Numbered from the stretch's first letter, positions 45,177 through 57,638 are shown. The stretch: DNA of 64,000 nucleotides from Promethearchaeota archaeon (GCA_030599585.1 JAUVNS010000010.1:144826-208825), one strand, 5' to 3'. Notes: generated from the letters alone by a model not told the origin. Numbers and translations are program-made.

Positions 45177-45755
45177 TTAATCTGATATTACATTGCCTTC
45201 TATCTTTAATAGGCTTCTTTTTAGATTGGTTTGCCAATCCTCATCCATTTTTCCCATAAAACCGCCAAGCTTTCCATCGGTTTTAATCACGCGGTGACAA
45301 GGTACCACTAAGGGTAATGGATTATTCCTAAGAACACCCCCTACAGCACGATAAGCTTTTGAATTAATACTTTTTGCTAAATCTGAATAAGTAGTTATCT
45401 CACCCGGTTTTACCTTTAGAAGAGATTTTAAAATACTCTCAGAGAATGGAGTACTGAATTTTCCATCGAGATTATACAATATATCTATTTCTTTTAAGGC
45501 TTTGAATAAATTCGTTTTACCATCCTTTAAGTATGCGTTGATGATACTCTGCATTTCCGATAAAATGGAATATACTTTTTCATCATTTTTATTAACCAAT
45601 TTTAATTTATTATCCTTCACATGCTTTAAAATATCCGATTCCTCTTTGAAGAAATCGATCTCTCTCAGAGTTATAATATTTTGAGTTTTCTTATGGTTGT
45701 AAAGAATAAATATAAATGGATCAATATCATCTGGTTTAAAATAATATGCGGGAAT
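45177..45755 (-). CDS. ogt: O6-methylguanine-DNA methyltransferase; frame is open upstream of the annotated GTG (45620) to a TAG at 45768-45770, start uncertain
   Basis: PGEITTYSDLA, RAVG, PCHRV active site. An in-frame ATT at 45755 lies 8 nt after a GAGGT RBS. Confidence 0.85.
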   Translation of the reverse strand: MPAYYFKPDDIDPFIFILYNHKKTQNIITLREIDFFKEESDILKHVKDNKLKLVNKNDEKVYSILSEMQSIINAYLKDGKTNLFKALKEIDILYNLDGKFSTPFSESILKSLLKVKPGEITTYSDLAKSINSKAYRAVGGVLRNNPLPLVVPCHRVIKTDGKLGGFMGKMDEDWQTNLKRSLLKIEGNVISD

Positions 45756-45874
45756 ATCAACTGACCTCTAATTTTTTAAATATAACAATTTCATAGGTAG
45801 ATACAATATAGCTATCATTTCGATAAGTATATAAAATGAATCTATTATCTCAATAATAACAATAATTGGTTTTA
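45716..45874 (+). repeat. Direct repeat copy 1 (ogt 5' end plus divergent promoter region)
   Basis: 140/159 nt identical, ungapped, to 54116-54274 (offset exactly 8400). Confidence 0.92.
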
Positions 45875-45909
45875 ATGGTTATAACATAAAATGTTTTGAA
45901 CTAATAATC

Positions 45910-46944
45910 ATGCTACGTCAAGTATATATCTTAAAGGATGGTAATATAATTTACGAAAGAGACTTTGGAAAAGTATTAACTTTTGAAAGATTTCAAAGTA
46001 TTTATCAAGAAATACAAGGAGAACTCTCTCGTGGACTTTTAGATGATTTTGGAAGCACTCACTTTTTTAAATATAGAATTATATATACGATAGACAGCGA
46101 ATTAAATTTACTCTTCATATTCATAATCGGATTCAACGACGATATAGAAACTGTTAAACGATTATTAAAAAAATTAAAAACGGAATTTTTAGTAACTTTT
46201 GGTGATATTATCGATAATTTAGACCCATCCCTCCTTGAAATCTTTGATCCTTTGATAGAATCAATTCATAAAAAAATTAGAACTAAAATCTCGTTGGTAG
46301 GATTTTCAGGAGTCGGGAAAACAACCATTACAAGATTAATAAGCGCTGAAGAAATTCCCGAGACGCATATTCCTACAATAACGGGAAAAGTTTCTACGAT
46401 TAAAATTGGAAAATTAGTATTTCATTTATGGGATTTTGCTGGCCAAGAACAATTTAGTTATTTGTGGAGCGATTTTATCTATGGAAGCGATGCTGTTCTC
46501 TTAATTACTGATTCCACTTTAGAAAATGTAGAGAAAAGTAGATATTTTGTCGAATTAATAAAAGAACAAACTCCAAATGCACATTCTGCTGCTATTGCAA
46601 ATAAACAAGATCGAGAAAATGCCTTAAGTGTTGAAAAGATTGAAGAAATTCTCGGAATAAAAGCATATTCGATGATAGCAATTGAATCGAACAATCGAGA
46701 TAAAATGATTCAAATCGTTGCAGACATCTTGGAAATGAACACTGAAGCATCAGTTCTCTTAAAACCAATATTTGAAAGAGACAAATTAATCCAATTAGCA
46801 AGGAAAAGTTTAGAAAATGGAGATATTGCTGAAAGCGTAGAATATTTTGATAAAATCGCAGATATTTGTCTGAGTTTGGGAGATGATGCTCTCTATAAAG
46901 AATTTTACGAAAAAGCTGAAAAATTTAAGCGATATCTTATTTAA
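45910..46944 (+). CDS. Small Ras-superfamily (Arf/Rab-like) GTPase with N-terminal longin-like and C-terminal helical domains
   Basis: G1 GFSGVGKT, G2 PT, G3 WDFAGQ, G4 NKQD. N-terminus MLRQVYILKDGNIIYER.. is longin-like, C-terminus TPR/MIT-like. Confidence 0.88.
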   Translation: MLRQVYILKDGNIIYERDFGKVLTFERFQSIYQEIQGELSRGLLDDFGSTHFFKYRIIYTIDSELNLLFIFIIGFNDDIETVKRLLKKLKTEFLVTFGDIIDNLDPSLLEIFDPLIESIHKKIRTKISLVGFSGVGKTTITRLISAEEIPETHIPTITGKVSTIKIGKLVFHLWDFAGQEQFSYLWSDFIYGSDAVLLITDSTLENVEKSRYFVELIKEQTPNAHSAAIANKQDRENALSVEKIEEILGIKAYSMIAIESNNRDKMIQIVADILEMNTEASVLLKPIFERDKLIQLARKSLENGDIAESVEYFDKIADICLSLGDDALYKEFYEKAEKFKRYLI

Positions 46945-47036
46945 AATCTAATCTATAGTTATTGTACTGTTACAACAAATCTCTTCTTAAAAAGTAGAAT
47001 CTATTTTTCAAAAATAAAAAAATATTTAAATAAAAA

Positions 47037-48140
47037 TTATTTTTTAGAATTTGTTTTAGGTTTATAAGGTCGATATGTATCTTCAAGTACATTTAGATAC
47101 TCGATTAATACTCCATCGGATTTTGATTTTACATCATATTGGTGGAGGATAATATTTAAAATATATCTGGGGTACACAAGGGAAACCTGTAAATCAGAGA
47201 GTAATGCGTAATATTCCGTTCCTTGTCCATTTTGGAACATATACATAACTTTATTTTCCAATAATTTTTTGATTCCGCCATCGATATCATCAACCCCTTT
47301 TTTTCTAAGTTTTTCTATACTACTTCTAGTTACTATTGAAATTCTCAGTAATTTAAGTATTTCATATAATTGTGGATCAGTTAGAATTTTTATCAATTTT
47401 AAGTTATCTTCTTCCGAGGGACGATAATTTTGGAAATAAGTTCTAACTTCAGCATTATAAGTTGCGACTAAGGATTCAGGAAGACCTCGTTCTATAGGTT
47501 CCCTCAATATTTTGATAGGTGGGCGTCTAATTGTGAAAATATCGTTAATTAAAAAGATTAACTCAGAAGGCATTCCCTTTACAGAAGATTCTTTTATAAT
47601 CTCTTTTTTAATCAGTTCAATTAAAATCCCGTCAATATCAAAGAAGCCTCTATAATATTTTTCCTTCATCCATACCTTTAGTTCTGATTTCGAGACAACT
47701 CCTTCATCCCTTAGTCTATTTATGAGTAATCTATTTATCTCATCTTCATAAGTTAAAGCAAGAGCTTGTTCTTGATTCAGATGTGGGTAAGCAGAAAGGC
47801 GCTGAAATAAGAATGGAACCATTTCGAGATAAGCTTGATCTTCGTAATTTTGAATGATTATACGAGATACATCTGCTAATCCACCTTCGTACGCGTCAGG
47901 ATCGTCATCTAAATTCAAAAGTAATACGATGTATAATGGTTTATCTCCTCCGGTATAATAAGAGGCTATATTCAAATGCCCAACCATTAAACTAATCATT
48001 CCTGGTTCTGCTGTGTATTCATGAGCAGCATAGATTTGCATTAAAGTTTCATCAGTTATGATGAGTTCTTCGGGATACTTTGAAATAATATCAGTACTAA
48101 TCTTTGGGTCCCATCTCATTAGGATTAATCCAATTGGCAT
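47037..48140 (-). CDS. uDENN/longin-like domain plus winged-helix protein
   Basis: N-terminus MPIGLILMRWD...KYP is paralogous to 55417-55794. Two wHTH-like segments follow. The ATG overlaps the upstream TAA (TAATG). Confidence 0.6.
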   Translation of the reverse strand: MPIGLILMRWDPKISTDIISKYPEELIITDETLMQIYAAHEYTAEPGMISLMVGHLNIASYYTGGDKPLYIVLLLNLDDDPDAYEGGLADVSRIIIQNYEDQAYLEMVPFLFQRLSAYPHLNQEQALALTYEDEINRLLINRLRDEGVVSKSELKVWMKEKYYRGFFDIDGILIELIKKEIIKESSVKGMPSELIFLINDIFTIRRPPIKILREPIERGLPESLVATYNAEVRTYFQNYRPSEEDNLKLIKILTDPQLYEILKLLRISIVTRSSIEKLRKKGVDDIDGGIKKLLENKVMYMFQNGQGTEYYALLSDLQVSLVYPRYILNIILHQYDVKSKSDGVLIEYLNVLEDTYRPYKPKTNSKK

Positions 48141-51100
48141 TAGTCTCTGTCACCTCCTTTTTTACTCTTTTTCGCTTTTAATGGAGTAGGTTTTAATTTC
48201 AAATCAACGATACCTAAAGATTTTTCAAGTGAAAGTTCCAATTCTTTCCAATCATCTCCATACAATTTCACCATCATTTGATCTTTTGTTTTGGTAAGAT
48301 GGGATTCAGTTATAGCCTTTTTAGATTTGATAGAGCCCTTTACCTTTCTTATTTTTTTAACGAATTTTGGAATTCTAGCTTGTTGAATGACTCTATAAGT
48401 TATTAAACTTCCAGCAATACCAATTGTAGCGGCAAGAATTAAGATAAAGTAAAACATGGGCATACCAGAGAAGATTTCGGTCATCTGAACAACAACAGTA
48501 AAATCACTAGTTTCAGAAGTAAAATTTGCTTTTTCAATGATGAGTGTACCGATAAAAGTTTCAGGCGCTATAAATGGCTCAGCTATAGGTAGTGTGTTAA
48601 CTGTATAACTACCATCATTATTATCAAAAATTCCTCCCGTAACAGTACCATATTCAATTCCTTTTATTGTGAAAGTTAAATATGCCCCAATAACAGGAAC
48701 TGAGTTATTATTAGGATCAGTGAGTGTTATTTGGAATTGTACAGTCCCCCCAGAAACTAAATTTATTCTAGTATCAATGGAAAAATTTATAGAAAACACT
48801 CTCACATGAATAGTTAGAGATATTATTGCAATTCTAAAATCATGATTGTCCTTACTTAACGTAACTACAACAGAATACTCTCCTACTTGAAGGGTTTCTG
48901 TGTCAAGGTCTAGAATATATTGATGATCGGCAGTTTCATGTAAAAATCCTAAAATAGTACTACCAGGGATTATATCTCCATTGTTATCACGTTTGTTAAG
49001 AATAAAACTCTTCTCATCAGCATTCCATATCCTATTATTTGTTAGAACGTCAGTAAAATCAAATGTGAAGTTAAGAGAATCTAGTACATAAAATTCTCGA
49101 CGTAGATATAAAGCATCTTCATTAGTATTCAATAGTGTAGGCCTGTTAATGATAGTAATTATGAGATTAGGGTTAGGCACTCCGATGCTAAAGTTTTGTT
49201 TCACAGCTGATATACTAATAATATAAGAACCTATTTCAGTTACATTACCAGTATCAAAGAAAAATGAATAATATCCCGGACCTTTTACTCCATCTGGGTT
49301 TACTTGCCCTGATCCAAAAGCCCAACTATATGTGACAGTTGCGCCCGTAATTGGGGAACTAGAAATCAATTCTCCAAAATAAAATGTTATCCCAAAGGTT
49401 TGATTCCAATATTCTGTAAGTGAATAAGATGGAAATATAGTACCTGTGGTATAATTATGAATAGTCAGATCTGTTAACACCGATTGTACTTTAAACAAAA
49501 TTTGAAGTGGTTCTGGAGGAGTCCATACCGTTGGTGTAGTTTTACTAGCATAAATAGCTATATAATAAGATTCGCCTCCGATAAAAGACAATTGCGATGT
49601 ATTGAAAGTATAGCTGTAGATACCCATAGAAGTGTTATAGTTAATTAAATTGATCGATGGACCGTAAGAATTTAAAGATTCATCGAGGAATTGGAGAGTT
49701 ACCGTAGTAGGATGTGATGAATTTTGTGGATTTGATTGATACTGGGTTGTAAAGTTAAACGTGAAAGTGACATTATCTCTCCAATAGATATCTGTAAGAA
49801 AGTTTGATGGATTTTGGGATATTAAAGTTAAGAAGGATCGGTAATCTGTTTGTATAAAAGTGATAACAAGAGAGCTTGATACAACCTGAGAAGTATAGTT
49901 TTGTTTTTCAAAGGTAACTGTGATTGTATAAGTTCCATTTGGTAAACTTGCTGTATCAAAACCAATGAGATAGTATATTTCCTTATTTGTATCATATCCA
50001 AGAGAACCACTACCGGATGCTGTACCATTATATGTATATGATTGCGTATCTAAATTAGTTATAGACGTACTAGTTAAATTATCTGTGTAAAAATATGTAA
50101 AATTCTTAATTTCTCCTGTATTAATAAAAAACGCACCTGTGGATTCATTTACAGATGTAAGACGTTCTTCAATTGTCAAAGAAAGTACTGCATTTCTTAA
50201 TTCATAATTTATTTTACGGAAAGTTAGAAACACAAAATAATCTCCAAGTTCCATTAATTCAGTATCAAGGTCTAAAATATATCTATGATCAAAAGTTTCA
50301 TTTAATAGGCCAATTTTGTTTGCCCCTGGAATTGGATCTCCAAATTCATCAAGTTTCTGCCAATTATAACTCGCTTCATCTGGATTTGAAATTCGAGTTA
50401 AACTTAAAACATCTGTATAATTGAATTCAATAGTTTCCGTTTCTAATGCAAATACACTTTCACTAAGAAAAATCACAATATTGCTACCATTGAGAAACGT
50501 TTCTCTTTCTGTAATACTGATAGACGTTAAAATGCTCTGCGTAGTATAATTTTCCAGCGTTGCTGTTACTACAATTGATCTCACACCCCATACTGCTGCT
50601 ATTGATGTATCTATAGTTGTTGTAAAATATCCTATATTAATAGGATCTTCATAAAATTGAATAGGGTCAAGGCCAAGCCATTCGTAAGTCAATGTAGCAT
50701 CTGTGAGTGGAGAATTTGAGACATTATAATATTTAACTGTTAAATTAATAGATTCACCAAAAGTTTGTGAAATCTCACTTATTTCTACTGAAACATTATT
50801 ATAATCATGTAATGATAGAACTGTCCCTTTTCCTTCTACATAAAGCGTTGTAATTTCATCACCTTGAAGAGTATAAGGACTTTTAGTACCAGTAATTACA
50901 AGTTTATAAAAAACACCAGCTAATCCTGCAGATAATATAGATGAATTAAATTCTTTCATATAATATCCTGGTGACCCTATAGGGTCCATATTATAAGTAT
51001 ATAGTACCTCTGTTCCGAGCTGTACTTTTAGTTGTATCGAGTCCGGAACAGTTACCGCACTATCAGTTAACCAATTATCCTCTGTTTTATTAAAGAACAC

Positions 51101-53836
51101 TTGAACTGAAACATTATTCCCCCATATTACTTCCTCTGGAGATATTAGATTATCAAATTTTAGTTTGTATTCACTTGGATCTATAGCCCCCATGTCAATA
51201 TCGAATTCGAGAGTAAAATTATACTTTAACAAGGAATAATTGTACCATCCAACATAATTATTTGGTGCCCATTGATTGGGATCAGGCCCCGATACATTGA
51301 AAGTATCTTGAATAGTAGCACCTTCCCATCTAACTGAAAAATTATAATAGTATCCTCTTAAGAACATAAAAGGTAAGTCATTATTTGAGAAAGCATAACT
51401 ATCTCTACTCTTATCGGATGTTAAAGTAGTTGTTACAATATTTCCTAATATAGTTGAATTAGATTTTATTGTAACTATAGCATCTGAAATAGTAGCTCCA
51501 TCCCCAAGAACTCTTATATTTAGTTTTGAAATTGCTGTTTTGTTAAAAACATGCAAGGCTTCAGTCGTATTTATTTTTATTTCTCCCGTACATTGTGATG
51601 TATTTACACCCCAAACATCTATGAGTAAGCCATACGCTAAACGATTTTCGCTACTTAACATAGAATTAACGACAGTCATAAGATCAATATTTATATTATC
51701 ATCTGTAGCTCCACTATAACTTTCATCAAAGAAAATACGATGATTTATTGTATCTGTGTTATTAGAAGAATCTATGTAATAAACTGAAACATTTGTGAGG
51801 GGTTCATTATTTTGTATTGATATAGATACATTTATTAATTTTATATCCGATATCATTGTCATCGAATCATTCATATAGATTCGCTTTTTAACATTATATT
51901 GACTTGATGGTGGTTCTTGATTATTTTCATTGATATTAAGTGTATGAAATTGGTGTTTATCACCATCAGGATATTTTGCATAATTATCTCTCCATATATA
52001 GCTGGCATTTAATGGCGTTGGATTTAGAGAATAATCAGTATTGTTGAAATAGACTTGATAATAATAAAATGAGCGATTTAACCACCGAAACGTTGCTTTT
52101 CCATCATTACTGAGCTGAAGAATATCGAGTGCAGCACCTCCTTTACTATAACTAACATTGATGTATCCATACGTTAAAGGATAGCCGCCATAATCTACAA
52201 TTTCAAAGTCAATTGTAGACATATTTAGTATCAACTCATACACTTTACCTGAACCATCAATTAGAAATTCTGTCGAAATAATTTTGCTATCATACACGAC
52301 TTCTTCTAATCCAGAATACGGTATTGTGTAGTTTACAGAAACATTATAGCTTCCATAAGCCACATTGGAAAAGCTAACAGAACCATCTTCTTCAGAAGTC
52401 TCATATGGTCCTATTGTTGTTGGATCCCCATACTCTTCCATTATCGTCACTTCTGCGTTAGGAACAATTCTTCCATCAACATCCTTCGTTATAAATGTAG
52501 CACTCCCAGCAACCTCTTGAACATCATCATTCAATGCGGTATTTAGTTCATAGTTGAATGAAACATCGTCTACTTGTGTAAATGCTGTTTGAAAACCACT
52601 ATCATCTTTACCATAAGTTCCAATTTCTAAAAATAAAAGTCTTCCCATATCACTTGCATCCAATTCAATTTCAAATTTACCAGTTATTTCTCCATCATTA
52701 CTATAAGGTGTAGGACCTGGATCATTTCTTGTATCATAATAATCTGAGGGTGATAATGTATCAACAACAAAAGTATAACCTAAAGCATCTCTAGCCTCAT
52801 ACTGTTCTTTTGCTTCCAGATCAATATTACGATGCACATCTACATCTGAAGAGTAATCTTCACACAACCTAATATAAAATCCCAGTGGATGTGAGTCTTT
52901 TGTGTTATAAACTCTAAAGTTTCTATAAACTTCTAACTTAAGATCAACATCTCCTTCTAATGTTGGAACTATAAAAGGGTAAGTATAGAGCGTTCCTTCA
53001 AAATCATGACCCTCGGCAGGGGGGTCAGGGTCATCCGCAGTTTCTAACCAAGAGCCTAAATCCCCCCATTTAAAAGACCAATTACCAAAAGTTCTCTCTT
53101 GATTATTATTCGACTCAGTAAGTTCATGCATATAATTCAAATTATCCTCTCCTGCTCCATCAATATCATAGTCGATGGGTGCTGCATTAGTATAAGTCCA
53201 TCCAAATACTTCAGTTGTAAGTTTTTGTCCAGTTTCACCATCTAATTCAAAATCCCCATTTCTAATCCAGCCCATTGCATCTTTTGTATTATTTGATGCA
53301 GTATCCATATAATAGTCAGGATCCACTGTTTCTTGAGCACTGCCATTAAAATATAAAAAGACGTTATCAGTATCAATATTATCTGGAGATAAACCAATAT
53401 CTACATCAAACCAAACAGTTACAAAATCAGTGTTAGGATAATCTTTTTTATAATAATATTTTCTAAGTACACCATCTTGAACAATTCTAATATCTGATAG
53501 GTCCCCATTCATTGGATAATCTGGTGTACCCTCTGTATGTTCTGTATAATTAAATATTATTGAAGTGGTATAATTAGTAAAAGCAACATCTCCCAATGGA
53601 TAGGTAACATTTATTAGTCGTCTATATCTCCAAGAACCATCCCACCAGGATGCACTACTTATTTTACTGGGGCGAGGGCTCTCAATGGGTTCTGGGAGAA
53701 TATTATTAACTTCATTAAAATTAGTTTCTGAATCGCTGTTATTCATTGGAAAAACCATGAACATGCTTGAAACCAAAAATATTAAAAGGAAAGTTAAGGT
53801 CTCTATTTGCGTTTTTACTCTTCGATTTCTTGTCAT
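48140..53836 (-). CDS. 1898-aa cell-surface protein (DUF2341-like N-terminus, Ig-like repeats, C-terminal TM and basic cytoplasmic tail)
   Basis: Signal peptide/anchor, WWDGSWRYRR..DIRIV DUF2341-like start, many NxS/T sequons, duplicated about 110-aa beta domains (H.YILDLDTE twice), TM FYFILILAATIGIAGSLI. Confidence 0.82.
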   Translation of the reverse strand: MTRNRRVKTQIETLTFLLIFLVSSMFMVFPMNNSDSETNFNEVNNILPEPIESPRPSKISSASWWDGSWRYRRLINVTYPLGDVAFTNYTTSIIFNYTEHTEGTPDYPMNGDLSDIRIVQDGVLRKYYYKKDYPNTDFVTVWFDVDIGLSPDNIDTDNVFLYFNGSAQETVDPDYYMDTASNNTKDAMGWIRNGDFELDGETGQKLTTEVFGWTYTNAAPIDYDIDGAGEDNLNYMHELTESNNNQERTFGNWSFKWGDLGSWLETADDPDPPAEGHDFEGTLYTYPFIVPTLEGDVDLKLEVYRNFRVYNTKDSHPLGFYIRLCEDYSSDVDVHRNIDLEAKEQYEARDALGYTFVVDTLSPSDYYDTRNDPGPTPYSNDGEITGKFEIELDASDMGRLLFLEIGTYGKDDSGFQTAFTQVDDVSFNYELNTALNDDVQEVAGSATFITKDVDGRIVPNAEVTIMEEYGDPTTIGPYETSEEDGSVSFSNVAYGSYNVSVNYTIPYSGLEEVVYDSKIISTEFLIDGSGKVYELILNMSTIDFEIVDYGGYPLTYGYINVSYSKGGAALDILQLSNDGKATFRWLNRSFYYYQVYFNNTDYSLNPTPLNASYIWRDNYAKYPDGDKHQFHTLNINENNQEPPSSQYNVKKRIYMNDSMTMISDIKLINVSISIQNNEPLTNVSVYYIDSSNNTDTINHRIFFDESYSGATDDNINIDLMTVVNSMLSSENRLAYGLLIDVWGVNTSQCTGEIKINTTEALHVFNKTAISKLNIRVLGDGATISDAIVTIKSNSTILGNIVTTTLTSDKSRDSYAFSNNDLPFMFLRGYYYNFSVRWEGATIQDTFNVSGPDPNQWAPNNYVGWYNYSLLKYNFTLEFDIDMGAIDPSEYKLKFDNLISPEEVIWGNNVSVQVFFNKTEDNWLTDSAVTVPDSIQLKVQLGTEVLYTYNMDPIGSPGYYMKEFNSSILSAGLAGVFYKLVITGTKSPYTLQGDEITTLYVEGKGTVLSLHDYNNVSVEISEISQTFGESINLTVKYYNVSNSPLTDATLTYEWLGLDPIQFYEDPINIGYFTTTIDTSIAAVWGVRSIVVTATLENYTTQSILTSISITERETFLNGSNIVIFLSESVFALETETIEFNYTDVLSLTRISNPDEASYNWQKLDEFGDPIPGANKIGLLNETFDHRYILDLDTELMELGDYFVFLTFRKINYELRNAVLSLTIEERLTSVNESTGAFFINTGEIKNFTYFYTDNLTSTSITNLDTQSYTYNGTASGSGSLGYDTNKEIYYLIGFDTASLPNGTYTITVTFEKQNYTSQVVSSSLVITFIQTDYRSFLTLISQNPSNFLTDIYWRDNVTFTFNFTTQYQSNPQNSSHPTTVTLQFLDESLNSYGPSINLINYNTSMGIYSYTFNTSQLSFIGGESYYIAIYASKTTPTVWTPPEPLQILFKVQSVLTDLTIHNYTTGTIFPSYSLTEYWNQTFGITFYFGELISSSPITGATVTYSWAFGSGQVNPDGVKGPGYYSFFFDTGNVTEIGSYIISISAVKQNFSIGVPNPNLIITIINRPTLLNTNEDALYLRREFYVLDSLNFTFDFTDVLTNNRIWNADEKSFILNKRDNNGDIIPGSTILGFLHETADHQYILDLDTETLQVGEYSVVVTLSKDNHDFRIAIISLTIHVRVFSINFSIDTRINLVSGGTVQFQITLTDPNNNSVPVIGAYLTFTIKGIEYGTVTGGIFDNNDGSYTVNTLPIAEPFIAPETFIGTLIIEKANFTSETSDFTVVVQMTEIFSGMPMFYFILILAATIGIAGSLITYRVIQQARIPKFVKKIRKVKGSIKSKKAITESHLTKTKDQMMVKLYGDDWKELELSLEKSLGIVDLKLKPTPLKAKKSKKGGDRD

Positions 53837-54101: not shown

Positions 54102-54194
54102 TTAAATGCTAACATATGGATCAATAACTTCTAATTTAAAATAATAAACGGGAATTTCAACTAACCTCTCCTTCTTTAAATATAACAATTTCAT
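54102..54194 (-). pseudogene. Truncated duplicate of the ogt 5' end
   Basis: MKLLYLKKERLVEIPVYYFKLEVIDPYVSI* versus MKLLYLKN*RSVDIPAYYFKPDDIDPFIF in the ogt frame. Confidence 0.7.
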
Positions 54195-54274
54195 AGGTAG
54201 ATATAATGTACTTATCATTTCGATAAGTATATAAATTGAATCTATTATCTCAATAATAGCAAAAAATGGTTTTA
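54116..54274 (+). repeat. Direct repeat copy 2
   Basis: 140/159 nt identical to 45716-45874. Confidence 0.92.
54209..54229. promoter_or_regulatory. Palindromic candidate operator next to a TATA-like box
   Basis: TACTTATC-ATTTC-GATAAGTA perfect 8-bp inverted repeat running into TATATAAA. An imperfect version is present at 45809-45829. Confidence 0.4.
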
Positions 54275-54339
54275 CTTATTATAAAATAAAACTCTATTTT
54301 TAAAAAAAAAAAAAATTTAGAATAGTTTTAATTAAAGAA

Positions 54340-55359
54340 TTGAGGAAATTAACCATGCCTAAAAACCTTCTAGATGCTATAGATGGAATCGAATCAACCG
54401 AAAAAGAGTCTGCTGTTCTCCAATCTAAGATTGACAGATTGATAGAAACGCTCGAGAAACAAAAAGGAGTTATAAGTAGCCTTGAGGTTGTTATTGAAAA
54501 ACAAAAAATAAAAGTTAAAAGAATGTATGATGTTCCTGAAGATGTTTTAGAATTGAAAGAACTAGCTGTAACTCAGAGATCAACACTTAACAAAAGAGAA
54601 ACAGATTTAGAGCTTGCTAAAGGTGAACTTCTTGCTATTAAAAAAGAAATGGATTTCATGAAGAGACAAAGTATCCCGACTCAACGAAAACTTGATGAGG
54701 GTTTTGAAACAATTGGAACCCTCAAAACTGAACTTGCAGAGAAAACTTCTGAATTGTTATTGAAAGATGAGAAATTACAGGAAATTCAAGCCTTTGCCGA
54801 TAAAGTTCAAAACGAACAAATAGGTTTATTATCAGACATGGATCAAAAATGGAAAAAAGAACTCGAACAATTAAGATTAGACCATTTAGAAGAAAAGAAA
54901 GAAATGGCTTCTAAAATAGTTGATCTAGATACATTTCTACTAGACAGTAAACTGACATCTACAGAGGCTACCTCTGAAGCTAAAGACTTAAAGTCAAGGT
55001 TTGCCGACATTCGAACACAACAGGAAAATATGATCAATAAATTAGAAGACGCTCTGGATAAAAAACGCAAAGCAGAAGAAACTCTAAGAAAAAAGAATCA
55101 TGAGATGGAAGATCTCTTGGAGTTTAAGAAAAAAAACCAGAAAAAGATTAATTACTACGATAAATTAACAGCCTTAATGGAACGGGAAGCGCAGTTCAAA
55201 GCCTTCCTAATAGTAGAACAAGTAGGATCAATATCTATGGAAGATTTACGAAATGCTCTTGGTTCTCCCATTGTACTTGTTAGAACATTTGTTCAGAATT
55301 TACAAGATGTTGATTTGGTTGAAATCAACGAAGCAGGAAAAATTGTTGTAAAAAACTAA
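54340..55359 (+). CDS. Long coiled-coil protein with C-terminal winged helix (start probably ATG 54355)
   Basis: About 280 aa heptad-rich E/K/L region, then AFLIVEQVGSISMEDLRNALG...LQDVDLVEI wHTH. GAGG RBS before ATG 54355. Confidence 0.72.
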   Translation: MRKLTMPKNLLDAIDGIESTEKESAVLQSKIDRLIETLEKQKGVISSLEVVIEKQKIKVKRMYDVPEDVLELKELAVTQRSTLNKRETDLELAKGELLAIKKEMDFMKRQSIPTQRKLDEGFETIGTLKTELAEKTSELLLKDEKLQEIQAFADKVQNEQIGLLSDMDQKWKKELEQLRLDHLEEKKEMASKIVDLDTFLLDSKLTSTEATSEAKDLKSRFADIRTQQENMINKLEDALDKKRKAEETLRKKNHEMEDLLEFKKKNQKKINYYDKLTALMEREAQFKAFLIVEQVGSISMEDLRNALGSPIVLVRTFVQNLQDVDLVEINEAGKIVVKN

Positions 55360-55416: not shown

Positions 55417-55794
55417 TTAGATTTTAGCTAAATCTTTATAAAGATGAGGGAGAAGCTTTATAAATTTACTATCTTGAGTTTGGTCGAGTATTTCAGCTGC
55501 TATAGTTTTTAAAATTTCTCGATACTTACTGGGTTTTTCATCTCTACGTAACAACAGCGCAACGACATAATTTTCCACGCTAATATGGTCGTCACCTACA
55601 CCTGAAAAGAAAGAAACAACCTTATTGTTCTTTAAGCTTATCGATGCGAACCCAGGCTTTAAGCTTTGGTACCGATGTGACGAATACACTTGCGTGAGCA
55701 AGTTATTTGTGATTTTAAGGTTTTCGGGATAAAATCCTTCGTTTATTGGACCAATTTCGTTATCCCACCGAATTATAAGAATTCCGACCGGCAA
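55417..55794 (-). CDS. Stand-alone uDENN/longin-like domain protein
   Basis: GILIIRWDNEIGP...YP, KVVSFF, YVVALLL pattern. GAGGT RBS before TTG. Paralog of the 47037-48140 N-terminus. Confidence 0.65.
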   Translation of the reverse strand: MPVGILIIRWDNEIGPINEGFYPENLKITNNLLTQVYSSHRYQSLKPGFASISLKNNKVVSFFSGVGDDHISVENYVVALLLRRDEKPSKYREILKTIAAEILDQTQDSKFIKLLPHLYKDLAKI

Positions 55795-56336: not shown

Positions 56337-57638
56337 ATGAAATTAGTTGAAATTATTGGTTTAGAAGCAAAACACGCTAAACTTTTAGAGAAAGCGGGCA
56401 TAAAGGAGGTTGAAGATCTTCTCTCTCTTAGTTACTATCAAATCAAACAAATGGCGAGAAGCATAGGAGTTGCGGTGAAAACTCTAGATACGTGGCAAGA
56501 ACACGCAGATCTAATGAGAATTGATGGAGTAACACCAAAAATCGCGAATGCCTTAAATCTAATAGGGATGGATTCCGTCAAGGAATTTGCATATAGAAAT
56601 GCTAAAAATGCGGTCGAAAAATTAAAACTACTTAAAAAAGACAATCCGACCGTTCTAACAAAAGTACCCACATTAAAAGCTATAGAGAATTGGATTGTAG
56701 AAGCAAAAAAATTCTCAGATGTGCCTAAAGGAGGGGAAAAAGTTAAAAAGAAGCCAGTTCCTAAGGAAAAACAACCACCTAAAGAGACTCCAGATTCAAC
56801 TATACCAATCATACCAAACTACAAACCTTTTGAACAATTTGAAAAAGATTACGGGAAATATGGACCTGATTATTGGAATGATAAATGGGATACTGCCCCC
56901 ATCATCTATACAGGACGAGCGTTAAGGGGTGCATCTTATAATAAACAAATTGATGTAGATGTAAAAGCGTTCATTAAGAAAAACGATGCTATTCTGTGGC
57001 ACGTCTTAACTCAACTCAATTTAAGAAAAGACACTCCTAACGACACAGCGTTATCAATCCAAAATTTTGTATGCAATTTTCTTAAGTATAAGTACGATGA
57101 TATCGCATCAGAATGCCCTGAATTTTGGTTATTTCCCTTTGAAGCGATTCAATCCGAGATTGGTGATTGTGAAGACGGAGCGATCTTAATTGCAAGCTTA
57201 TTAATTAATGCAGGGATTCCTTCGTGGAGAGTAAAAGTATGTGCTGCCCAAGTTATGGCGGACCCAATCTTTGCACCATCAGACACAGAATTAGGAGGCC
57301 ATGCGTATTGTATTTATTTAGCGGATCGACCAGATTCAGAACGAAAATTAGAGTGGGTAATATTAGATTGGTGCTATCTACAGGATCCAGAAATTCCAAT
57401 AAAAGAGAAGCCTTTAGCGCGAAATGGAGGTTCCGGGGGTGCATATCGTGATATCTGGTTTACGTTTAATGATCTTCAATCGTGGGCTCAAAGTAGTTTT
57501 GAAGTCGGGTCACGGATTAGTAAGAATCGAACAACACAGAAAGACGAAGTTTTAGCTCCCTTAGAAGAGATTTTGAAAAGTTTGGCAAGTGATACAATTG
57601 AAAAAATCTTTGAGAAACTAAATATAGACATAGAATAA
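56337..57638 (+). CDS. DUF4332 (tandem HhH) plus transglutaminase-like cysteine-protease domain protein
   Basis: Two HhH units (LEKAGIKEVEDLL; ADLMRIDGV), P/K-rich linker, triad GDCEDGA / GHAY / ILD. Confidence 0.8.
   Translation: MKLVEIIGLEAKHAKLLEKAGIKEVEDLLSLSYYQIKQMARSIGVAVKTLDTWQEHADLMRIDGVTPKIANALNLIGMDSVKEFAYRNAKNAVEKLKLLKKDNPTVLTKVPTLKAIENWIVEAKKFSDVPKGGEKVKKKPVPKEKQPPKETPDSTIPIIPNYKPFEQFEKDYGKYGPDYWNDKWDTAPIIYTGRALRGASYNKQIDVDVKAFIKKNDAILWHVLTQLNLRKDTPNDTALSIQNFVCNFLKYKYDDIASECPEFWLFPFEAIQSEIGDCEDGAILIASLLINAGIPSWRVKVCAAQVMADPIFAPSDTELGGHAYCIYLADRPDSERKLEWVILDWCYLQDPEIPIKEKPLARNGGSGGAYRDIWFTFNDLQSWAQSSFEVGSRISKNRTTQKDEVLAPLEEILKSLASDTIEKIFEKLNIDIE

Follow-up and report, generated by a model that had tools for sequence, protein, structure and literature searches.

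Giant surface proteins, NPRL2/3-like longin adaptors and longin-fused Arf-like GTPases as a candidate membrane-anchored module of Asgard archaea

We analysed a 64,000-nucleotide stretch of a Promethearchaeota archaeon genome (the window, G000:C8:144826-208825; assembly G000 measures 4.85 Mb in 52 contigs with a G+C content of ~31%), focusing on three adjacent genes that encode a giant surface protein, a cytoplasmic protein that we call the adaptor, and a small GTPase fused to a longin domain (Table 1). Named relatives of the window proteins come from Lokiarchaeia/Promethearchaeota and other Asgard metagenome-assembled genomes. A reading made from the sequence alone (the sequence-only reading) had delimited the three open reading frames (ORFs), placed a TAATG overlap at 48140 between the giant-protein and adaptor genes, and put the block between two copies of a direct repeat. 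All of this was recovered, the coordinates, strands and lengths of the ORFs exactly. The stop codon of the giant gene (TAA, 48142-48140) overlaps the start codon of the adaptor gene (ATG, 48140-48138), upstream of which lies a Shine-Dalgarno-like box, GGAGGTGA, at 48150-48157. The GTPase gene is convergent with this pair, and an A+T-rich spacer of 92 nt separates them.

Table 1. Positions of the three genes and their associated features, counted from the first letter of the window
Feature	Position	Strand	Basis or content
Longin-fused Arf-like small GTPase, 344 aa	45910-46944	+	ORF, Pfam Arf, AlphaFold2 model
Cytoplasmic adaptor, 367 aa	47037-48140	-	ORF, AlphaFold2 model, Foldseek, profile matches
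Giant surface protein, 1898 aa	48140-53836	-	ORF, hydropathy, composition
Giant protein, C-terminal transmembrane helix, about aa 1792-1814	48395-48463	-	Hydropathy scan
Giant protein, cytoplasmic tail, aa 1815-1898	48143-48394	-	Juxtamembrane motif Y-R-V-I-Q-Q-A-R-I-P-K-F-V-K-K-I-R
Coupling junction of giant protein and adaptor	48138-48157	-	GGAGGTGA box, then TAATG
Direct repeat, copy 1	45716-45891		5' end and upstream region of minus-strand ogt (MGMT-like) gene
Direct repeat, copy 2	54116-54291		Duplicated ogt 5' fragment adjoining 339-aa gene; other edge of the three-gene block

The giant protein had been described as a single-pass surface protein with a basic cytoplasmic tail, and its features agree with that description: an N-terminal hydrophobic segment (signal or anchor) is followed by one C-terminal transmembrane (TM) helix and an 84-aa cytoplasmic tail, and a 91-aa stretch from aa 1808 has an isoelectric point (pI) of 10.2. 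The ectodomain is acidic (pI 4.2), beta-rich and dense in N-x-S/T sequons (55 versus 26 +/- 4 in shuffled sequence), and the protein contains two cysteines. Pfam returned weak CarboxypepD_reg/SpaA matches only, and relatives are named in their sources as carboxypeptidase-like regulatory domain or DUF2341 proteins. A search with the tail retrieved 119 clusters. In nearly all giant proteins encoded next to an adaptor gene in the Asgard families sampled, the last TM helix is followed by the core motif [RK]-x-x-[RK]-[IV]-P-x-x-[IV]-[KR]-[KQ]-I or a variant of it. Unlike this juxtamembrane motif, the ectodomains of these proteins could not be aligned between families.

The tail and the adaptor are linked in other genomes by gene fusion. 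Among adaptor representatives at 50% identity, we found 9 in which the adaptor domain forms the C-terminus of a longer protein (1330-2548 aa in 7/9). In each of the nine, the domain is preceded by the same TM helix and juxtamembrane sequence as in the window tail, and the juxtamembrane motif just ahead of it, R-I-P-x-x-[IV]-K-[KQ]-I, is basic and conserved. Hence, the TAATG junction of the window corresponds to a point of fusion or fission. On G132:C61, a 2661-aa giant-adaptor fusion and a 482-aa tail-adaptor fusion are followed by a longin-GTPase gene on the same strand, and at two loci (L032, L035) a gene of 143-147 aa, encoding a TM helix and tail only, lies upstream of a paralogous adaptor gene. 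Six pairs of consecutive NCBI locus tags connect matches of the tail search with matches of the adaptor search. Moreover, the two parts are complementary in charge, with a pI of 10.2 for the tail versus 4.2 for the adaptor longin.

Many paralogous giant-protein/adaptor cassettes are present per genome. One of them, with 62% adaptor identity (G000:C24:282261-291552, with L033-L042), has as neighbours, in conserved order, a Gtr1/RagA-type GTPase gene (303-315 aa), an S25e-like gene, a methyltransferase gene and a form-III-like RuBisCO gene. We considered these four genes as possible further partners of the cassettes and set them aside, as their proximity looks to be a matter of local synteny, though the RagA-like gene may or may not share a function with the cassette. 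A cassette type that is more distant (G000:C8:1895-9730; also L065, L066 and L068) has no adjoining GTPase gene and consists, on one strand, of genes for a giant protein with an F-K-Y-P-P-[LM]-V-R-K-I-R tail, a 375-aa adaptor paralogue and an uncharacterised protein of 640-670 aa.

For the adaptor, a longin domain and domains of the winged helix-turn-helix type (wHTH) had been guessed before any structure was predicted. The AlphaFold2 (AF2) model, made with a 65-sequence alignment (pLDDT 92.3, pTM 0.84), agrees, placing a longin domain at residues 1-121, winged helices at 123-206 and 222-322, and two helices at the C-terminus. The protein is acidic (pI 5.2; family median pI 5.19). In the PDB, its six best Foldseek matches are GATOR1 NPRL2/NPRL3 chains (E-value 1e-4 to 8e-4), with yeast Npr chains next; alignments to the NPRL2/3 chains extend over 300-400 columns with E-values of about 1e-4, but their TM-scores are only about 0.2. 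The longin fold itself, which the sequence-only reading had proposed to look for in this way, matches NPRL2 with Z-scores of 12.3 (8fw5_B) and 12.0 (7t3b_B), at a root-mean-square deviation (rmsd) of 2.6 over 119-120 residues. Since Lst4, FLCN, a Lokiarchaeal roadblock-longin protein and VAMP7 score within 1-2 Z units of this match, the longin subtype (that of the GTPase-activating protein (GAP) longins) is not decisive. SRX longins match as well (2go5, Z 9.2; 5ck3, Z 8.6).

Sequence profiles add to this picture. The adaptor has no match in Pfam or NCBIfam, and ESM Atlas returned unnamed Asgard clusters only. At the level of the family (65 members), we found weak matches to wHTH families in Pfam, and the family profile matches wHTH structures at residues 244-317 and 133-218. 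None of the 65 members matches Pfam NPR2 (PF06218) or NPR3 (PF03666) at E <= 1, and none matches DENN, uDENN, Avl9 or Folliculin. Conserved positions of the longin are W10, D11, G15, P23, H40, S60, G64 and L75, with a W-D-x-x-x-G...Y-P motif between strands 1 and 2; R205 and R266 in the winged helices are nearly invariant. The uDENN/DENN label that the protein had been given did not hold. After residue 121 the model continues with winged helices and lacks a DENN alpha/beta core, and matches to DENND1A/B and DENND10 cover the longin part only or are loose beyond it (rmsd 11). We therefore rejected the DENN assignment and describe the protein as a longin with two winged helices, NPRL2/3-like. 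The family is large (685 clusters at E <= 0.001, 315 representatives at 50% identity) and is found in 114 of the 151 Asgard genomes in which its presence was scored, with up to 9 matches per genome and 8 in G000.

The GTPase consists of a sigma-adaptin-like longin domain (aa 1-122), a G domain (126-273) and a three-helix C-terminal tail (285-340). It matches Pfam Arf with an E-value of 3.2e-20 (72.8 bits, cut-off 22.3), and the Arf, Roc, Ras and Gtr1_RagA models all match within residues 120-258. The G1-G4 motifs (GFSGVGKT, T156, DFAGQ and NKQD) had been read as intact; no variation is seen across 28 aligned sequences in the P-loop, T156, the WD-x-x-GQ motif (which reads DFAGQ here) or NKQD (residues G131, K137, T156, D175, G178, Q179, N231, K232 and D234), and the protein conforms to the Arf-family G1-G5 motif pattern (WD-x-x-GQ, NKxD). 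The best Foldseek matches are Arl1/Arf1 at 27-28% identity, with a TM-score (on target) of 0.76 for Arl1 (1r4a_A), and the solved Asgard ArfR structures 8oum and 8ouk are also among the matches.

An N-terminal amphipathic helix of the Arf type is not present in the GTPase, its N-terminus being occupied by the 122-aa longin domain. That this domain is a longin had been proposed, and two lines of evidence concur. The AF2 model (pLDDT 85.7) shows the longin order of secondary structure, bbabbbaa, ahead of the GTPase fold and the three-helix tail, and a profile made from the N-domains of 23 GTPases adjoining adaptor genes across the phylum matches AP-2 sigma (E-value 2.3e-5), AP-3 sigma (1e-3) and delta-COP (6e-3). 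Individually, 7/23 of these N-domains match Pfam Clat_adaptor_s (PF01217; best E-value 1.4e-5), the window's own copy not being among them. The family begins with M-I-R-x-[VI]-x-I, which we take to resemble the start of sigma-adaptins. The closest paralogue of the window GTPase (58% identity; G000:C34:264054-266105, minus strand, L092) lies in an open frame of ~685 aa with an additional C-terminal extension of ~340 aa that has no assigned fold. Most of the family's sampled genomes have this long form, which in G132 adjoins the giant-adaptor fusion.

The sequence-only reading had suggested a gene-neighbourhood survey across Asgard genomes. We made one that covered 60 loci of the adaptor, spread over 13 of the sampled families, counting as neighbours of the GTPase type those genes whose products have a P-loop near residue 130 and an N-terminal longin. 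GTPase genes make up 20/127 of the neighbours at distance 1 versus 15/499 at distance >= 4, and giant TM protein genes 31/127 versus 1/499, a positional enrichment of 5-fold and > 100-fold, respectively. Counted by locus, the immediate neighbour of the adaptor gene is a GTPase gene in 20/60 cases and a giant TM protein gene in 28/60, and a GTPase gene lies no more than three genes away in 31/60. All three genes occur together at 12 of the 60 loci; synteny is conserved, in several gene orders. The arrangement of the window (giant, adaptor, then convergent GTPase) recurs at L031-L034 and L094, a co-directional giant, adaptor, GTPase order is found at L076, and the order is adaptor, giant, GTPase at L050, L052, L053, L070 and L090. 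At L073 and L075 the GTPase gene is divergent from the adaptor and giant genes. A further locus outside the 60 (L093) has the order GTPase, giant, adaptor. Other families have the adaptor and GTPase genes only, either in the order GTPase then adaptor (L049, L083-L086) or often with a third gene of 102-138 aa (L044-L046, L059, L080-L082). This small gene lies downstream of the GTPase gene (L044:11488-11826, L046:8218-8550, L080-L082, L076:10482-10898), and its products have no Roadblock or longin match in Pfam.

The distribution of the two cytoplasmic proteins over the phylum follows a similar pattern. With thresholds of E <= 1e-3 for the adaptor and E <= 1e-20 for the GTPase type, their presence is concordant in 23/27 families. 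Both were found in 17 families and neither in 6 (including 0/13 genomes of family f5), and the remaining 4 are discordant.

The surroundings of the block bear on how it may have come to lie where it does. The direct repeat measures 176 nt, its copies are 87% identical and only two exist in the genome; its sequence corresponds to part of a minus-strand MGMT/ogt gene (PCHR motif), covering that gene's 5' end and the region upstream of it. In 10 genomes of the same genus, ogt and a homologue of the 339-aa gene (54340-55359) are immediate neighbours, and in G000 and its closest relative, G154, it is the giant gene that directly adjoins the 339-aa gene. G113 has an empty ogt/339-aa site and carries the three genes on another contig. 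In G000 the duplicated segments lie at both edges of exactly the three-gene block. Taken together, the empty site in relatives and the bracketing repeats indicate that the three genes appear to have entered this site as a unit. As the copies differ by 13%, the event is old unless a copy that had already diverged arrived with the incoming DNA. We also considered a mobile element and rejected it, given the two genomic copies only, the lack of any tRNA found near the block and the lack of a Pfam match of any kind for the flanking 339-aa gene. The duplication has the look of a remnant of recombination, not of transposon ends.

Some neighbouring genes deserve mention in their own right. The ogt-like gene (45177-45824, minus strand) has an in-frame TAG (45768-45770) in its N-terminal region, with the next start, GTG, at 45620; genus relatives align in one piece across this position. 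The N-terminus of ogt may have been damaged by insertion of the block, or the TAG may be an assembly variant. A stand-alone longin of 125 aa (55417-55794, minus strand) is 31% identical to the N-domain of the adaptor and carries a W-D-N-E-I-G-P motif. Its full-length matches across the genus are 90-98% identical, versus 54-92% for its 339-aa neighbour. We rejected it as a fourth part of the system because it adjoins the 339-aa gene in genus relatives with or without the block. The window also encodes (56337-57638, plus strand) a 433-aa protein with an N-terminal DUF4332/helix-hairpin-helix region and a weak match to a transglutaminase-like core.

Synteny, gene fusions, phyletic profiles and the empty site in relatives strongly support a functional linkage of the three genes. 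As to what they do together, we consider it somewhat probable that they form one membrane-anchored small-GTPase module conserved across Asgard archaea, in which the adaptor docks on the tail and longin pairing connects it with the GTPase. On this model, the adaptor would bind the giant protein at its basic juxtamembrane segment, and the adaptor's longin domain would pair with the longin or the switch region of the GTPase, in the manner of NPRL2-NPRL3, FLCN-FNIP, Mon1-Ccz1 and SRX-SRbeta. The GTPase switch would thereby be kept, and its nucleotide state set, on the cytoplasmic side of a particular surface protein. The adaptor might serve as a GAP, as a factor for guanine nucleotide exchange or as a plain tether, and information could flow outside-in or inside-out.

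Several observations weigh against such a module. Neither partner is found nearby at 10/60 adaptor loci, and a group of adaptor paralogues with 61% identity has the giant protein but no adjoining GTPase. In this genome the GTPase gene is convergent with the other two, so that the three do not share a transcript. Because related genomes do not count as independent samples, the locus counts overstate the number of separate events. A comparison of the adaptor-longin and GTPase-longin profiles with hhalign was weak and uninformative (probability 5%). Finally, a conserved arginine is absent from the adaptor longin (columns 1-125 of the 65-sequence alignment), and an arginine-finger GAP mechanism of the GATOR1/FLCN type is therefore not indicated.

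Among the alternatives, the one that fares best would have the module sort, cluster, position or turn over giant surface proteins without any signalling, the tail motif being a sorting signal for the longin adaptor, acting jointly with the sigma-adaptin-like longin/Arf-like switch, comparable to the way in which Arf1 brings AP and COPI complexes to cargo tails. We rate this as possible, if rather unlikely. There are likenesses to the small and medium chains of clathrin adaptors and COPI: the family of GTPase N-domains matches AP-2 sigma, AP-3 sigma, delta-COP and Pfam Clat_adaptor_s, the G domain is closest to Arl1/Arf1, and a short cytoplasmic motif is conserved on membrane proteins whose ectodomains diverge. 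The numerous paralogous cassettes per genome and the many complex surface proteins seen on Lokiarchaeal cells (PMC9834061) would also fit a sorting role. However, cultured Lokiarchaeia show no internal vesicle system (PMC9834061, PMC12290439), and the best full-length fold matches of the adaptor are NPRL2/3 rather than mu or sigma adaptins. The proteins at the locus also differ from the eukaryotic complexes in that longin and GTPase form one polypeptide, in which the longin replaces the N-terminal amphipathic helix of Arf.

The winged helices raise the question of DNA binding. Their profile matches to ArsR/TrmB/TFIIE-type wHTH domains and the nearly invariant R205 and R266 could suit a membrane-tethered transcription regulator, held or released by the surface protein on an outside cue. 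We find this improbable, since the adaptor family is acidic, the fused forms tie the domain covalently to the membrane, the conserved partner is a GTPase and not a promoter-proximal target, and in NPRL2/3 and ESCRT-II such winged helices are used for contacts between proteins (PMC3521125).

It is more improbable still that the longin/Arf-like pair acts like SRX-SRbeta of the signal recognition particle receptor and aids insertion or export of the giant protein. SRX longins are in the fold lists, the partner is an Arf-like GTPase, and the clients would be proteins of 1400-2400 aa with a signal peptide and a C-terminal anchor; yet many other longins match as well as SRX or better, the part that is coupled is the C-terminal tail, the last to be synthesised, and C-terminal fusion fixes a 1:1 ratio ill-suited to a catalytic targeting factor. 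Lastly, that the genes are mere chance neighbours is hardly credible: although small GTPases and longins abound in Asgard genomes (tblastn with the window GTPase gives ~19 segments in G000 at E <= 1e-5) and in strain MK-D1 GTPase genes generally do not share operons with longin or roadblock genes (PMC10933270), chance would leave the positional enrichment, the fusions, the concordant phyletic profiles and the empty ogt/339-aa site in ten genus relatives unaccounted for.

The membrane-anchored module that we favour can be compared with several known systems. NPRL2/NPRL3 (yeast Npr2/Npr3), which regulate Rag GTPases and consist of a longin and tandem wHTH domains, a triad (PMC3521125), provide both the best full-length and the best longin match of the adaptor, which too would partner an Arf/Rag-side small GTPase at a membrane. 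The adaptor differs in having two winged helices instead of three and in its lack of a Pfam NPR2/NPR3 match; the conserved arginine finger that it lacks is also missing from NPRL3-type non-catalytic subunits. Moreover, its neighbour GTPase is a longin-Arf-like fusion and not a Rag, and the attachment is to a surface protein instead of the lysosome. Asgard longins of the FLCN/SMCR8 type have been linked to eukaryotic GAP longins (PMC12290439). The pairs MglA/MglB and SRX/SRbeta share the minimal regulatory unit of a roadblock/longin platform bound to a small GTPase, without coupling to giant surface proteins or a winged-helix extension.

Parts of the system have been anticipated. The statement that no such operon-level system had been described stands, by the texts searched, for the coupling to surface proteins; it does not stand for operons of a DENN-like protein with a GTPase, or for longin-GTPase fusions. 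Longin-Arf/Rag fusions in Asgard archaea have been reported (PMC10933270, PMC11914678, 10.1101/2020.10.19.343400), and those described with ArfR/AArf (PMC10933270, PMC11914678, 10.1101/2024.02.28.582541) have the same domain architecture as the window GTPase. Terms for operons or gene neighbourhoods are absent from the text of PMC11914678 and 10.1101/2024.02.28.582541. Liu et al. (bioRxiv 10.1101/2020.10.19.343400) predict that genes for a DENN-domain protein, a non-Rag small GTPase and a LAMTOR1-like protein form an operon conserved in Asgard archaea, and describe NPRL2-like longin families and DENN paralogues expanded in Loki, Hel and Heimdall. Our same-strand groups of adaptor, GTPase and 102-138-aa genes (L044-L046, L059, L076, L080-L082) may be that operon and the small gene its 'LAMTOR1-like' gene; the adaptor family is likewise expanded in Loki-type genomes. 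The adaptor differs in having no DENN core, the small third gene has no Roadblock match, and giant surface proteins or transmembrane partners do not appear in the text of the preprint. Giant surface proteins, the tail motif and the fusions are not mentioned in the literature texts on Asgard longins and GTPases that we searched. Overall, the coupling to giant surface proteins is the new element, the longin/GTPase part having already been partly predicted.

Which regulator acts on which GTPase is an open problem in Asgard biology, and genome layout rarely helps (PMC10933270). The module described here is a concrete set of three whose membrane anchor is defined, whose candidate docking motif is short and whose members also occur as natural fusions, and its relatives are named in Lokiarchaeia/Promethearchaeota, the groups that hold the cultured Asgard strains. 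Tentatively, we suggest as a possibility a phylum-wide system in which an NPRL2/3-like longin adaptor, with a sigma-adaptin-like longin/Arf-like GTPase as its partner, would recognise the tail motif of giant glycoproteins; this might be a prokaryotic forerunner of cargo-tail/adaptor/Arf recruitment or of GATOR/Ragulator-type platforms, working at the plasma membrane before endomembranes existed. If true, longin platforms, Arf-like switches and the recognition of membrane-protein tails would already have been joined in the archaeal lineage closest to eukaryotes, which would bear on the origin of adaptor/coat and GATOR/Ragulator systems.

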